From: an uncultured Gemmatimonadaceae bacterium
GTDB taxonomy: Bacteria; Gemmatimonadota; Gemmatimonadetes; Gemmatimonadales; GWC2-71-9
DNA: 64,000 nucleotides
Assembly (NCBI GenBank): GCA_964596925.1
Contig: CAZQWQ010000072.1
Span: forward strand, 576,305 to 640,304
Direction of reading: 5' to 3'
Positions 6,856 through 9,697 of the stretch are shown here, one piece after another (positions within the stretch are counted from its first letter, which is position 1; each line of letters opens with the position of its first letter). The translations under genes and the position numbers were made by a program. The notes under the pieces are model-generated. The model was given only the letters and a program-made list of their open reading frames with translations. It was not told the origin of the DNA and searched no databases.

Positions 6856-7280
6856 TCTCAAGACCTTCCCTTTTTGTTGCAAGTCGTTTAGAATCAAGGG
6901 TTCCCGATGGAGTCCGGGAATCGGTCCCGGCGGGTCCCCTGTTGGCCCCGGCGTCGACAAGCGGAATTCGTTCCGCGTGCTTCGAGCCGGTCAGCTGATT
7001 GCGCGCACCCCCGGTCCCCCCCGGACTCACCTTACCACCGTCCCGGGTCGACGTGGTCCGTCATCCCCCAAGGAAGCGGGGAGCGGCCATGCCACCGCGA
7101 ATCGGTTGGCGGGGCGCAGCAACCGGACGACGCACTTACCCGCGCTTGGCGCGATCGCGTCGCCGATCACATCTCGAGACTCCGCCGAATGCGCGAGGCC
7201 CCCGTCCGTCGATCGGGATCGGAACCGAGGGGCCCTGGAAACGCGCACGGAGCGAGAGTCAGGAGTCAAAACACAGTCAC

Positions 7281-9113
7281 ATGACTACTCAACCGCCGGC
7301 GCATCTTGCCCGGCCAGCGTACAAAGAACCTCCCACCCACGCCCCCAACGCAGCGCTGCTCATCGACTTCGACAACGTCACAATGGGGATCCGTTCGGAT
7401 CTTCAGACGGAGCTGAAGCGTTTGCTGTCGTCGGACCTGATCAAAGGAAAGGTCGCGGTGCAGCGCGCCTACGCCGACTGGCGACGCTATCCGCAGTACG
7501 TCGCGCCGCTTACCGCATCGTCCATCGACATGATCTGGGCGCCCGCCTACGGCGCCACCAAGAAGAACGCGACGGACATCCGCCTCGCGGTGGATGCGCT
7601 CGAGCTGGTCTTCACGCGACCGGAGATCGGCACCTTCATCCTGCTCTCGGGAGACTCGGATTTCTCCTCCCTCGTCATCAAGCTGAAGGAATACGGGAAG
7701 TACGTCATCGGGGTGGGCATTCGGGAGTCGTCATCCGACCTCCTGATCCAGAACTGCGATGAGTACTTCTCCTACAACGAGCTCGCGGGGCTCACCAAGG
7801 AGAGCGACGTCGAGCACGTGCGGCACGATCCGTGGGAGCTGGTGGTCGAGGCCGTCAAGCAGATGACCGCCCACAACGACGTGATGCGCTCCGATCGCCT
7901 CAAGCAGGTCATGCAGGAGATCGACCAGACGTTCGAAGAGAAGGACTCGGGGTTCTCCCGCTTCAGCAAGTTCGTGCAGGAGGCGGCGCACCGCGGTCTG
8001 CTCAGCACGGTGCTGCTCGACAACGGGCAGTACGAGGTCGCGCTCGGGCCACGGGCCGAAGGGGCCCCGGCGACACCCGCCACGGGTCGCCGCGAAGTGG
8101 CCTCTACCCCATCGGCTCCCAAAGTCGAGGCGGCAGCCCCCGCGCCGCGCGCTCGCAAGAGCTCCCTCATGGGCGACGCGTTTGGCCTCCTCAAGCAGGC
8201 CCTCGGTCGAATGGGTGGGGAACAGCCGGTGAGCGCCGAAGTGGTCCGTTCGGCGATGAATGAGCTCGCGCCCGAGGGCGCCAAACGGGTCGAGCCGCGC
8301 AGCATGCCGAAACTGCTGCGGCAGGCGCACGACGCGGAGCTGATCGACCTGACGCGCGACGAGGAGGGCACGTATGCCGTCCGCGTCCGTCAGGAGGAAG
8401 GCAGCGCGGCGCCGTCTCCGTTGCCGCCCCCCCTTCGCGAGCCGGTCGCGCGGACGAGCGAGCCGGAGGAGGAGGAGCCGCCGATGCCGACATCTTCGGC
8501 ACCGCCGCCCCCCTATTCCCAACCCTCGAGTTCCGGGGGTCTGCCGGTGCGCAGCGCGCGCTTTCGCCGCGGTTCGAGGGGTGGGCGCCCCGCCGCTCCC
8601 GGTGTGACCAAGGTGGGGGTCGTCGAGGTAGATCCCAACTTCCGTTCTCGAGTCGAGCAGCCGCCACCGCGGAATACCCCGCCGATGGTGACCGAGCCGC
8701 CGGCACAGGGGGCTGGACGCGATGACGAGCGGCCGCGACGCGAACGAGGAGAGCGCGGCGGTCGCGGTCGCGGCGGCCGCGGTGGCCGGGGCGGACGCGG
8801 CCGTGCAGGTGGCGAGGGCCGTGAGGGACACGAAAATCCACGCGGAGCGGGTGGGGGAGGGGGAGCGGGGGGCGCCGACATGGGCGACCGTCCGTCCCGC
8901 GGTCATCGCGGCGGTCGGGGCCGCGGAGGCAGAGGCCGCGGGGAGCGCAACGGCGAGGAGCGGGGCGAGCCGATGGTGTCCCGGCCGGTGTCTCCCCCGT
9001 TGGCGCCTAGCCCCTCGCCCACGCCTCCGCCCAGGCCATCTGCGCCGGCGCCCAAGGAGGAAGGTGGCTCCTTCTGGACGAAGGTCAAACGCGGCCTGAT
9101 CGGCGGGGAGTGA
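7281..9113 (+). CDS. NYN (LabA-like) nuclease-domain protein with two OST-HTH/LOTUS-like domains and a ~240-aa Pro- and RGG-rich tail
   Basis: The internal ATG (residue 95 of track ORF 6999..9113) precedes 'ALLIDFDNV...GDSDFSSLVIKLKEYGKYVIGVG' (NYN). Two LOTUS-like segments follow. The tail carries 'GRGRGGRGGRGGRGR' and 'RGGRGRGGRGRGE' tracts. Confidence 0.8.
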   Translation: MTTQPPAHLARPAYKEPPTHAPNAALLIDFDNVTMGIRSDLQTELKRLLSSDLIKGKVAVQRAYADWRRYPQYVAPLTASSIDMIWAPAYGATKKNATDIRLAVDALELVFTRPEIGTFILLSGDSDFSSLVIKLKEYGKYVIGVGIRESSSDLLIQNCDEYFSYNELAGLTKESDVEHVRHDPWELVVEAVKQMTAHNDVMRSDRLKQVMQEIDQTFEEKDSGFSRFSKFVQEAAHRGLLSTVLLDNGQYEVALGPRAEGAPATPATGRREVASTPSAPKVEAAAPAPRARKSSLMGDAFGLLKQALGRMGGEQPVSAEVVRSAMNELAPEGAKRVEPRSMPKLLRQAHDAELIDLTRDEEGTYAVRVRQEEGSAAPSPLPPPLREPVARTSEPEEEEPPMPTSSAPPPPYSQPSSSGGLPVRSARFRRGSRGGRPAAPGVTKVGVVEVDPNFRSRVEQPPPRNTPPMVTEPPAQGAGRDDERPRRERGERGGRGRGGRGGRGGRGRAGGEGREGHENPRGAGGGGGAGGADMGDRPSRGHRGGRGRGGRGRGERNGEERGEPMVSRPVSPPLAPSPSPTPPPRPSAPAPKEEGGSFWTKVKRGLIGGE

Positions 9114-9697
9114 GGCTCACCTCCCCGCCGCTCGCCGCCGTTTTCTACGCGCGACCCACTGCCGAGGTCGCGCGTCGGCTTTTGGGGCATTTCCTCGTGA
9201 GTGAAGTCGGCGGGCGGCGCACCGTGGGCCGCATCGTAGAAACGGAGGCCTACGTTGGCCCGCACGACGCGGCCTGCCATGCCTTCGGGCGGCGGCGCAC
9301 CCCGCGCACCGAAACGTTGTATGGCCCGCCCGGCACGGCCTACGTGTACTTCACCTACGGCATGCACTGGTGTCTCAACGCGGTCACCGAGCGCCGGGAC
9401 TACCCGGCCGCGGTGCTGATTCGCGCGCTCGAGCCGCTCGAGGGGCTCGCGGTGATGCGCCTGCGTCGCGGCAAAGTGGCGGAGCGCGCGCTCTGCGCCG
9501 GCCCGGCCCGTCTGTGCGAAGCGCTCGGCATCACGGGGGACCAGAACGGCACGTCGCTCGTGCGCGGGGCAGTGCGGATCCTGCGCGACCGCGGGAGACG
9601 CCCGCCCGTCGCCGTCACGTCACGTGTGGGGATCACACGCGCTGTGGACTGGCCGTTGCGCTTCGTGATTCAGGGCTCGCCCTGGGCCTCGCGATAG
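9110..9697 (+). CDS. mpg: DNA-3-methyladenine glycosylase (Mpg/AAG family)
   Basis: GTG start in a GTGA overlap with the upstream stop. 'VGRIVETEAYVGPHDAACHAFGRRRTPRTETLYGPPGTAYVYFTYGMHWCLN' is the AAG-family core. Confidence 0.85.
   Translation: MRLTSPPLAAVFYARPTAEVARRLLGHFLVSEVGGRRTVGRIVETEAYVGPHDAACHAFGRRRTPRTETLYGPPGTAYVYFTYGMHWCLNAVTERRDYPAAVLIRALEPLEGLAVMRLRRGKVAERALCAGPARLCEALGITGDQNGTSLVRGAVRILRDRGRRPPVAVTSRVGITRAVDWPLRFVIQGSPWASR

Follow-up and report, generated by a model that had tools for sequence, protein, structure and literature searches.

The 64,000-nucleotide stretch analysed here (the window) carries, at positions 7281 to 9113 of the forward strand, an open reading frame that begins with ATG at 7281, ends with TGA at 9111-9113 and encodes a protein of 610 amino acids. 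The protein joins an N-terminal NYN nuclease domain to two LOTUS/OST-HTH domains, a long disordered tail with two RGG (arginine-glycine-glycine) boxes and a terminal amphipathic peptide. This architecture had been proposed in an original prediction made from the letters of the window; it was borne out by our analysis and is kept in homologs. The RGG, Pro-rich and C-terminal strings quoted there were all found in place, the segment PSPSPTPPPRPSAPAP among them. The protein starts with MTTQPPAHLARP, residue 1 coinciding with the start of the alignment to its homologs, and ends with GGSFWTKVKRGLIGGE. Its features are listed below, where conservation is given as the mean column identity in a 41-sequence alignment of homologs, as it is throughout the text, and pLDDT is the predicted local distance difference test score of AlphaFold.

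7281..9113, + strand: whole gene (P0001), NYN plus two LOTUS domains plus disordered tail; from the open reading frame, its translation and homologs
7350..7772, + strand: NYN domain (LabA-like/LK-nuclease, PIN-like), residues 24-164; from PF01936 and conserved residues
7818..8054, + strand: LOTUS/OST-HTH domain 1 (winged helix), residues ~180-258; from AlphaFold, Foldseek and Pfam via orthologs
8055..8162, + strand: variable Pro/Ala/Arg linker, residues 259-294; column identity 0.44, many indels
8163..8390, + strand: LOTUS/OST-HTH domain 2 (winged helix), residues ~295-370; from AlphaFold, homology to domain 1 and orthologs
8391..9110, + strand: disordered C-terminal tail, residues 371-610; from pLDDT below 50 almost throughout, composition and homologs
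8460..8525, + strand: acidic/Pro island EPEEEEPPMPTSSAPPPPYSQP, residues 394-415; column identity 0.66, net charge -4
8550..8642, + strand: conserved island RSARFRRGSRGGRPAAPGVTKVGVVEVDPNF, residues 424-454, a candidate docking motif; column identity 0.86
8745..8828, + strand: RGG box 1 (RGERGGRGRGGRGGRGGRGRAGGEGREG), residues 489-516; four RGG within 17 residues
8898..8966, + strand: RGG box 2 (RGHRGGRGRGGRGRGERNGEERG), residues 540-562; R543, G544 and G545 invariant
9069..9098, + strand: terminal amphipathic peptide SFWTKVKRGL, residues 597-606; from invariant residues, AlphaFold helix and hydrophobic moment

A search among 5.8 billion proteins returned more than 100 homologs of 570-650 amino acids with 56-87% identity, drawn from NCBI, JGI, ENA and Logan assemblies; the named matches were all from Gemmatimonadales. 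Nearly all full-length homologs contain 4-10 RGG, 14-26 RG and 12-20% Pro in their last 260 residues and end with [ED]SFW[ST][KR]VKRGL[IT]GG in the same frame, so the character of the tail is conserved. The original prediction had pointed out that the alternative frames are open as well, and had named a frame error as something that would place the tail wrongly. Those frames are indeed open across 7731-9099, as expected at ~70% GC, and this could speak for a protein that truly stops after the second LOTUS domain, the rest being a frame or sequencing artefact. We give virtually no credence to this explanation, since the homologs, from independent assemblies, yield the same tail and terminal peptide and the stop/start junction with the downstream gene is conserved. 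A frame error was rejected because the homologs keep the tail in this frame; judged by them, the tail is real and the frame is correct.

The N-terminal domain matched PF01936 with 89.4 bits against a cut-off of 24.2 (E 4e-25), covering profile positions 2-143 of 145, and PDB entry 2qip matched it at E 3e-5. Comparison with the NYN domain of human MARF1 (PDB 6fdl) showed similarity at the motif level only (E 0.39), with KNATD and SGD of our protein aligned to KNAAD and STD. The MARF1 motifs in these positions are essential for that enzyme (PMC6217404). D29-x-x-N32, D66, D99 and S123-G-D125 correspond to D178/N181, D215, D246 and S270/D272 of MARF1, the pairing of D66 with D215 being by position only. 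D29, N32, D66, D99, S123, D125 and D127 were invariant in alignments of 41 and of 62 homologs, and the mean column identity of the domain was 0.95. The alignment of the catalytic Asp residues suggested in the original prediction thus gave invariant acidic residues paired with the MARF1 motifs. By analogy with MARF1, the domain is a predicted Mg2+-dependent endoribonuclease on single-stranded RNA.

The two middle domains (residues 180-258 and 295-370) were modelled by AlphaFold with pLDDT of 80-90 and an H-H-H-E-E pattern, and hhalign showed the two to be homologous (probability 94%, E 1e-7, 72 columns). Foldseek matched them to the winged-helix proteins Fur, MarR, the H1 globular domain, RPC34, SelB and MukE, all at E >1e-3, and profile searches of the PDB with these domains gave nothing significant. 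To place the protein within its phylum, we used 201 sampled genomes, whose families are labelled f1-f12, with f1-f8 forming one class. Five of six tested orthologs from other families scored 31-51 bits with the OST-HTH profile PF12872 against its cut-off of 23.8, and the sixth lay just below it with 23.3. Two OST-HTH-matched stretches were present in four of the six, and an ortholog from family f7 aligned to residues 21-369 at 54% identity. Because orthologs align to residues 21-369 and pass the OST-HTH cut-off, we assign the middle domains to LOTUS. The two LOTUS-like segments of the original prediction thereby stand by orthology and by fold, but not by a direct Pfam match in the window's copy. 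The mean column identity was 0.87 for LOTUS1 and 0.71 for LOTUS2. LOTUS domains, one bacterial example included, bind G-rich or G-quadruplex (G4) RNA and show no preference for DNA G4 (PMC7498356). MARF1 is a proven single-stranded RNA nuclease that requires four Asp residues together with its LOTUS repeats, which are needed for RNA binding (PMC6217404).

AlphaFold, one of the checks of disorder suggested in the original prediction, gave pLDDT values below 50 for almost all of the tail. Residues 373-610 consist of 20.6% Gly, 17.6% Pro, 15.5% Arg and 9.7% Glu, with the charges arranged in blocks, acidic at 381-400 and basic at 411-440, 481-510 and 531-560. The description of the tail as low complexity holds overall, but the tail is not uniform: conserved islands (0.66-0.86) alternate with variable spacers (0.29-0.46), which are indel-rich and fast-evolving. 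The acidic/Pro island has the consensus EPEEEEPPMPxSSAPPPPYSQ. The second island, RSARFRRGSRGxRP..PKVGVVEVDPNF, is Arg-rich and beta-prone and is on a par with LOTUS1 in conservation; in homologs it is written RFRRGSRG...VGVVEVDPNF, and F428, R429, G431, S432, G434, P440, G446, V448 and D451 are invariant. Its pattern [FY]RRG[ST]R..P.[VI]G[VI]VE is recognisable in several other families and was found in 20 of the 78 full-length representatives (clustered at 50% identity) used for a survey of tails.

An RGG/RG box is defined by at least 2-3 RGG triplets, 0-4 residues apart, in a disordered Gly-rich segment. Two such boxes were found, both in the region with pLDDT below 50. The core of box 1, RGGRGRGGRGGRGGRGR, holds four RGG (column identity 0.72 for residues 484-510), and that of box 2, RGGRGRGGRGRG, holds two RGG plus RG repeats (0.73 for residues 538-556). 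With 12 RG in 60 amino acids, this is the densest RG tract in any open reading frame of at least 100 amino acids in the 4.1-Mb genome, and the RG pattern is therefore beyond chance. The label 'eukaryote-like' that had been given to the tail was overstated: Arg-rich disordered tails are general in the orthologous group and are also known in bacterial RNase E.

The last residues form a near-invariant peptide with the consensus ESFWxxVKRGLxGG (column identity 0.85 for residues 595-610), in which W599, V602, K603, R604, G605, L606 and G608 are invariant. AlphaFold predicted a short helix at 598-606 with pLDDT of about 60. For the terminal 9-mer, the hydrophobic moment was 0.72 and the net charge +3; the 11-mer, with 0.59, is in the top 6.5% of the genome's C-termini. 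For comparison, the membrane-targeting helix of FtsA from the same genome, which ends ...VERMLGPLKRWLQDFF, has a hydrophobic moment of 0.87. The protein therefore ends in a basic amphipathic helix that follows a flexible linker. This arrangement resembles the C-terminal helices of FtsA and MinD, which likewise lie at the extreme C-terminus after a flexible acidic/Gly linker, are basic and amphipathic, and carry Trp/Phe on the hydrophobic face; E. coli MinD ends ...KGFLKRLFGG, a pattern similar to the terminal peptide. Unlike typical lipid-binding helices of this type, however, the peptide is far more invariant, includes an invariant Gly and spans only ~10 residues; as an anchor it is putative. 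It was found nowhere else in the genome, and the idea of a tag common to several proteins was rejected for this reason.

The window's family shows two types of C-terminal end. Type A ends with ESFWxxVKRGLxGG and has RGG-rich tails, whereas Type B, in sister genera, has a longer classical amphipathic helix (e.g. SLLKRMTAALQKVVMG and GFLRRVTAALQKAVLG) and RGG-poor tails. Both share the register hydrophobic-hydrophobic-x-R-hydrophobic-xxx-L. Between them the sequence differs, and the C-terminal position, the amphipathicity and the basic charge are retained. Such a replacement agrees better with a target defined by physicochemical properties than with a fixed protein pocket.

By analogy with known helices, the terminal peptide may be a membrane anchor or may dock a partner protein, and the two readings of the peptide stand equal. 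In a stronger form of the second, the peptide, and possibly the RFRRGSRG...VGVVEVDPNF island too, would dock a specific partner such as PNPase, a DEAD-box helicase, the ribosome or MPG, and the protein would be a soluble degradosome-like hub with no membrane anchor. The seven invariant residues, with polar-face residues and a helix-unfavourable Gly kept among them despite up to 44% overall divergence, speak for this, as does the uniqueness of the peptide in the genome. There is also a precedent in Caulobacter RNase E, whose Arg-rich tail finishes with an aromatic and basic C-terminal peptide, TAPPEKPRRGWWRR (...RRGWWRR), that binds PNPase (PMC3376730). DEAD-box helicases can be regulated by LOTUS domains according to work cited in the MARF1 study (PMC6217404). 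However, the different, longer helix at the same position in sister genera suits a physicochemical target, and the amphipathicity and charge are like those of the FtsA membrane helix of the same genome. We regard such a soluble hub as a tentative possibility.

The DNA that encodes the terminus has a second aspect. The last NYN codons, ATC GGC GGG GAG (I-G-G-E) within 9099-9112, form a G-rich Shine-Dalgarno-like stretch directly before the GTG start of the downstream gene, and relatives have GGNGGN just upstream of the same overlap. The conservation of the terminal 'GG' may come partly from the ribosome-binding site of that gene.

A match to the NYN gene was present in 180 of the 201 genomes, mostly as one locus per genome, with f1-f8 nearly saturated. 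No match was found in f10 (0/13) or f9 (0/2), and f11 and f12 gave weak matches only. The latter are standard short proteins of ~260 amino acids without a tail, the f11 copies matching through NYN and the first LOTUS domain and the f12 copies through NYN only; at the one f11 locus inspected, the neighbours were unrelated. Since the forms outside the class are short and tail-less, the duplicated LOTUS domain, the long tail and the MPG (3-methyladenine DNA glycosylase) neighbour are innovations of the class. The NYN gene belongs to the core of one Gemmatimonadota class and is mostly present in a single copy. The protein had no match in PADLOC, and a role as a defence-system nuclease was rejected on this result and on the core-gene status.

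Tails are long and basic in all families compared, but they differ in their modules. At least 10 RG dipeptides occur in 52 of the 78 representatives, at least four RGG in 19 and a helix-hairpin-helix (HhH)-like motif in 38. In other lineages the RG/RGG tracts often lie in the linker between LOTUS1 and LOTUS2. The tails of f2 and f7 contain histone-H1-like AKP/KKAA repeats, and f2 and some f7 members end with AKAPAK or KKAATSKKAV. Orthologs from f4, f6, f7 and f8 (L036-L045) carry an extra folded C-terminal module, Y.GVG.KTAE.L.E.FG..VF.VL...P.R......RA..V.E.W, with a sub-threshold match to HHH_5.

This diversity bears on the question of whether the RGG/Pro-rich tail has any specific function at all. 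It might be neutral low-complexity sequence that arose by replication slippage in GC-rich DNA and is kept because a spacer or solubility bristle is tolerated there. The fast-evolving spacers with many indels, the very different tail chemistry between lineages, the cheap Arg/Gly/Pro codons of a ~70% GC genome and the frequent assembly breaks in the tail region would all fit a neutral origin. However, the RGG boxes, the second island and the terminal peptide (0.72-0.73, 0.86 and 0.85) are at least as conserved as LOTUS2. Furthermore, all 78 full-length representatives have a long basic tail, and the short tail-less form is confined to genomes outside the class. A functionless tail is therefore very improbable.

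The assemblies themselves are affected by this region. Several metagenome-assembled genomes (L003, L005, L009, L016 and L019, where the contig ends inside the NYN gene) are broken in the tail-coding region or beside it, and MPG is then found close to the edge of a different contig. Assemblies seem to be fragmented by the G-rich repetitive DNA that encodes the tail, so a missing tail or a missing MPG adjacency in draft genomes has to be read with care.

The core architecture of NYN plus OST-HTH has been known since 2010, when bacterial LK-nuclease (DUF88/NYN, PF01936) proteins with single or duplicated OST-HTH domains were described (Anantharaman, Zhang & Aravind 2010, PMC2848206). They have the same order of an N-terminal NYN followed by OST-HTH and were predicted to be stand-alone RNA degraders. 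The standard bacterial form, like that in the other classes of the phylum, has ~260 amino acids and no tail, whereas the present protein adds ~240 amino acids with RGG boxes, islands and a terminal helix. Animal MARF1 (limkain b1; NYN, RNA recognition motif (RRM) and LOTUS; PMC6217404) shares the KNAxD and S-x-D motifs and the minimal LOTUS domains; unlike MARF1, our protein has no RRM, has two instead of eight LOTUS repeats, and carries the RGG/Pro tail and terminal helix. Slr1870 and Slr0650 of Synechocystis (LabA/NYN, Slr1870 with OST-HTH) are bacterial NYN proteins of the same general type and co-purify with an RRM protein and ribosomes (PMC12232666), the one experimental clue for bacterial proteins of this kind, but they belong to another phylum, and no RGG tail or terminal helix has been described for them.

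The closest likeness in layout to the tail is the scaffold half of RNase E, with the helix and Arg-rich segments of the E. coli enzyme, the GWW peptide of Caulobacter (PMC3376730) and the bacterial ribonucleoprotein bodies (BR-bodies, PMC10412687). Spacers, microdomain-like conserved stretches, Arg-rich segments, a terminal element and lineage-variable content are common to both. The catalytic fold, in contrast, is PIN-like NYN: the protein matched NYN only, with no homology to the RNase E/G catalytic domain, and the likeness concerns mechanism only. In the literature searched, we found no description of the tail, the islands, the terminal helix or the class-wide MPG pairing, and no biochemical characterisation of a bacterial NYN plus LOTUS member.

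Taken together, we favour, with moderate confidence, a class-specific elaboration of a MARF1-like LK-nuclease/NYN plus OST-HTH enzyme, with an RNase-E-like multivalent tail. The NYN domain would cleave single-stranded RNA in a Mg2+-dependent manner, as MARF1 does, and the LOTUS pair would recruit G-rich or structured RNA. The RGG boxes would add multivalent RNA binding of low specificity, raise the local substrate concentration and perhaps promote clustering. The enzyme would be held at a site in the cell by two short docking elements, the conserved island and the terminal helix. For the helix this site would most likely be the inner face of the cytoplasmic membrane, as for the helices of FtsA, MinD and E. 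coli RNase E, or alternatively a partner protein. In this way the tail would work as the non-catalytic scaffold half of RNase E does, on an unrelated nuclease fold.

Several observations weigh against this interpretation. In the window's copy, PF12872 was sub-threshold for domain 1 (15.3 bits against 23.8; E 0.019) and did not match domain 2 at all, and the 50 Foldseek matches listed include no solved LOTUS structure. The NYN domain had pLDDT below 50 in two AlphaFold runs, with a shallow alignment whose rows were 82-99% identical, although the order of secondary-structure elements was compatible with an alpha/beta/alpha fold; the low confidence is probably due to the permitted homologs being so similar in this domain. 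The terminal helix is short, about 10 residues, and its near-invariant polar residues and Gly are more typical of protein docking than of a generic lipid-binding helix. The H1-like Lys/Ala tails or HhH-like module of other lineages, together with the MPG neighbour, point equally to DNA. Finally, the genome has RNase Y and a short RNase G-type enzyme, so a major role in RNA decay is not required.

The relevant genes of this genome are the RNase G-type gene without a scaffold tail (C28:107289-108101), a full-length RNase Y gene (C28:235540-237027) and an FtsA gene with a C-terminal amphipathic helix (C73:185494-186618); nothing in the genome scored above the family cut-off for MinD. The RNase E/G homolog is a gene separate from the NYN gene, with an open frame of about 589 amino acids. 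The NYN protein as a substitute for a missing main RNase was rejected because the RNase Y and RNase G-type genes are present, and the NYN-LOTUS protein is an additional player beside them.

Proteins with NYN plus LOTUS occur widely among bacteria, and animal MARF1 is presumed to descend from them. The class offers a natural experiment in which one conserved nuclease core carries exchangeable tails, namely RGG boxes, H1-like repeats, the HhH-like module and amphipathic helices. Should localisation or clustering depend on the tail, the RNase E solution of a catalytic domain with a scaffold tail would have a second, independent example, and RGG-box biology would be extended to bacteria.

Downstream of the NYN gene lies the glycosylase gene:

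9110..9697, + strand: 3-methyladenine (MPG/AAG-family) DNA glycosylase gene; its GTG start overlaps the NYN stop

The assignment rests on PF02245 (219.9 bits against 27, E 2e-65), NF002003 (205 against 182) and TIGR00567 (196 against 116). The overlap reported in the original prediction is present, GTGA at 9110-9113 being common to the NYN stop and the MPG start. Of 45 comparable loci from f1-f8, 44 have MPG directly next to NYN and on its strand; MPG follows NYN at all f1 loci with enough flank and at 18 of 20 distant loci of f1-f8. A 4-nucleotide overlap (GTGA, ATGA or TTGA) occurs in members of f1, f2, f3, f4 and f8, and most other loci with a placeable start codon have a gap of 2-44 nucleotides; in the L031 ortholog, which has an AKP-rich tail, MPG lies about 130 nucleotides downstream. 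Matches to MPG came from f1-f9, with none found in f10-f12, a distribution that runs parallel to that of the long NYN form. However, about 11 of the sampled genomes that have NYN gave no MPG match, and in f9 MPG occurs without NYN.

The coupling, which had been called unexplained, is therefore real and class-wide, with the two genes packed much as in a transcription unit, but it means less than had been assumed. As described below, the start of NYN is overlapped in the same way by an unrelated FadD-like gene in relatives; for this reason, and because NYN is present without an MPG match in about 11 genomes, the overlap is weak evidence for a shared role. As proof of a functional link with MPG, the 4-nucleotide overlap was weakened by both observations. 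The linkage suggests co-expression and gives weak evidence of shared function. The 2010 survey found no conserved neighbourhoods that tie LK-nuclease/OST-HTH genes to known RNA-processing systems (PMC2848206), whereas here the MPG neighbour is conserved throughout the class.

An alternative is a protein that acts on DNA together with MPG: a nucleoid-associated PIN-like nuclease on base-excision intermediates (abasic sites, flaps) or on alkylated nucleic acid, whose basic tail binds DNA. The same-strand pairing, often with the 4-nucleotide overlap, is consistent with this, as are the common phyletic range of MPG and the long NYN form and the modules typical of DNA binders in the tails of other lineages (H1-like AKP/KKAA repeats, and HHH_5-like motifs in 38/78). 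The PIN-like superfamily, moreover, takes in 5' flap nucleases (PMC2848206). On the other side, the characterised NYN enzymes of such type are RNases (PMC6217404), LOTUS domains favour RNA G4 over DNA G4 (PMC7498356), and NYN and MPG each occur in genomes where the other was not matched. The overlap with the FadD-like gene shows, in addition, that such coupling in these compact genomes need not mean shared function. We consider an action on DNA clearly unlikely.

A wider proposal, fairly unlikely as a whole, would combine both nucleic acids. The NYN-LOTUS enzyme would be an RNase-E-like organising centre of RNA decay that the RGG boxes gather on G-rich RNA, and the end of the tail would place it at the membrane (amphipathic helix) or at the nucleoid (H1-like or HhH modules). 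Co-expression with MPG would then serve a joint response to RNA and DNA alkylation, and the enzyme would be a bacterial counterpart of the MARF1-type granule proteins on a fold unrelated to RNase E. The conserved glycosylase pairing offers a way to test whether RNA surveillance and alkylation damage may be connected.

Between the two RGG boxes, the coding strand contains a further feature:

8849..8872, + strand: sense-strand G-quadruplex motif GGGTGGGGGAGGGGGAGCGGGGGG; encodes the Gly run between the RGG boxes

The motif has a G4Hunter score of 2.88, the top score on the + strand of the window, and is one of three G3+ motifs on that strand. It is poorly conserved, being present in 13 of 45 orthologs and missing from a relative of the same genus, and antisense motifs are nearly as frequent. 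The idea of autoregulation through an mRNA G4 was compared with a published case (PMC11789052). A conserved mRNA G4, or autoregulation via the G-rich RGG-coding region, was rejected on the low count in orthologs and the lack of strand specificity, and we treat the motif as a probable by-product.

The region upstream of the NYN gene differs from that of relatives:

6856..7280, no strand: 425-nucleotide non-coding gap at the site of the FadD-like gene of relatives; from comparison with relatives

Relatives from many genera have a gene for an AMP-dependent acyl-CoA synthetase (FadD-like) of 500-600 amino acids between yjbQ and NYN. Its product ends with ...RRELAQVVGLELSxx*, and in ATGA or GTGA the stop codon of this gene overlaps the start codon of NYN. 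The gene was recognised from the third-position wobble in the apparent 5' untranslated region of relatives (L003, L024-L027, L029, L035 and L049). No FadD-like remnant was detectable in the 425-nucleotide gap and no ortholog was found elsewhere in this genome; judging by the relatives, the window's genus has lost the gene, which left the gap. Rfam gave no match in 6856-7280. In and around the NYN gene, the search for RNA elements or terminators gave two weak Rfam matches far below the gathering scores and nothing convincing between NYN and MPG. In two relatives, L010 (open frame of 239 amino acids) and L023 (89 amino acids), the FadD-like frame is open in its C-terminal part only, which suggests decay in progress or assembly frameshifts.

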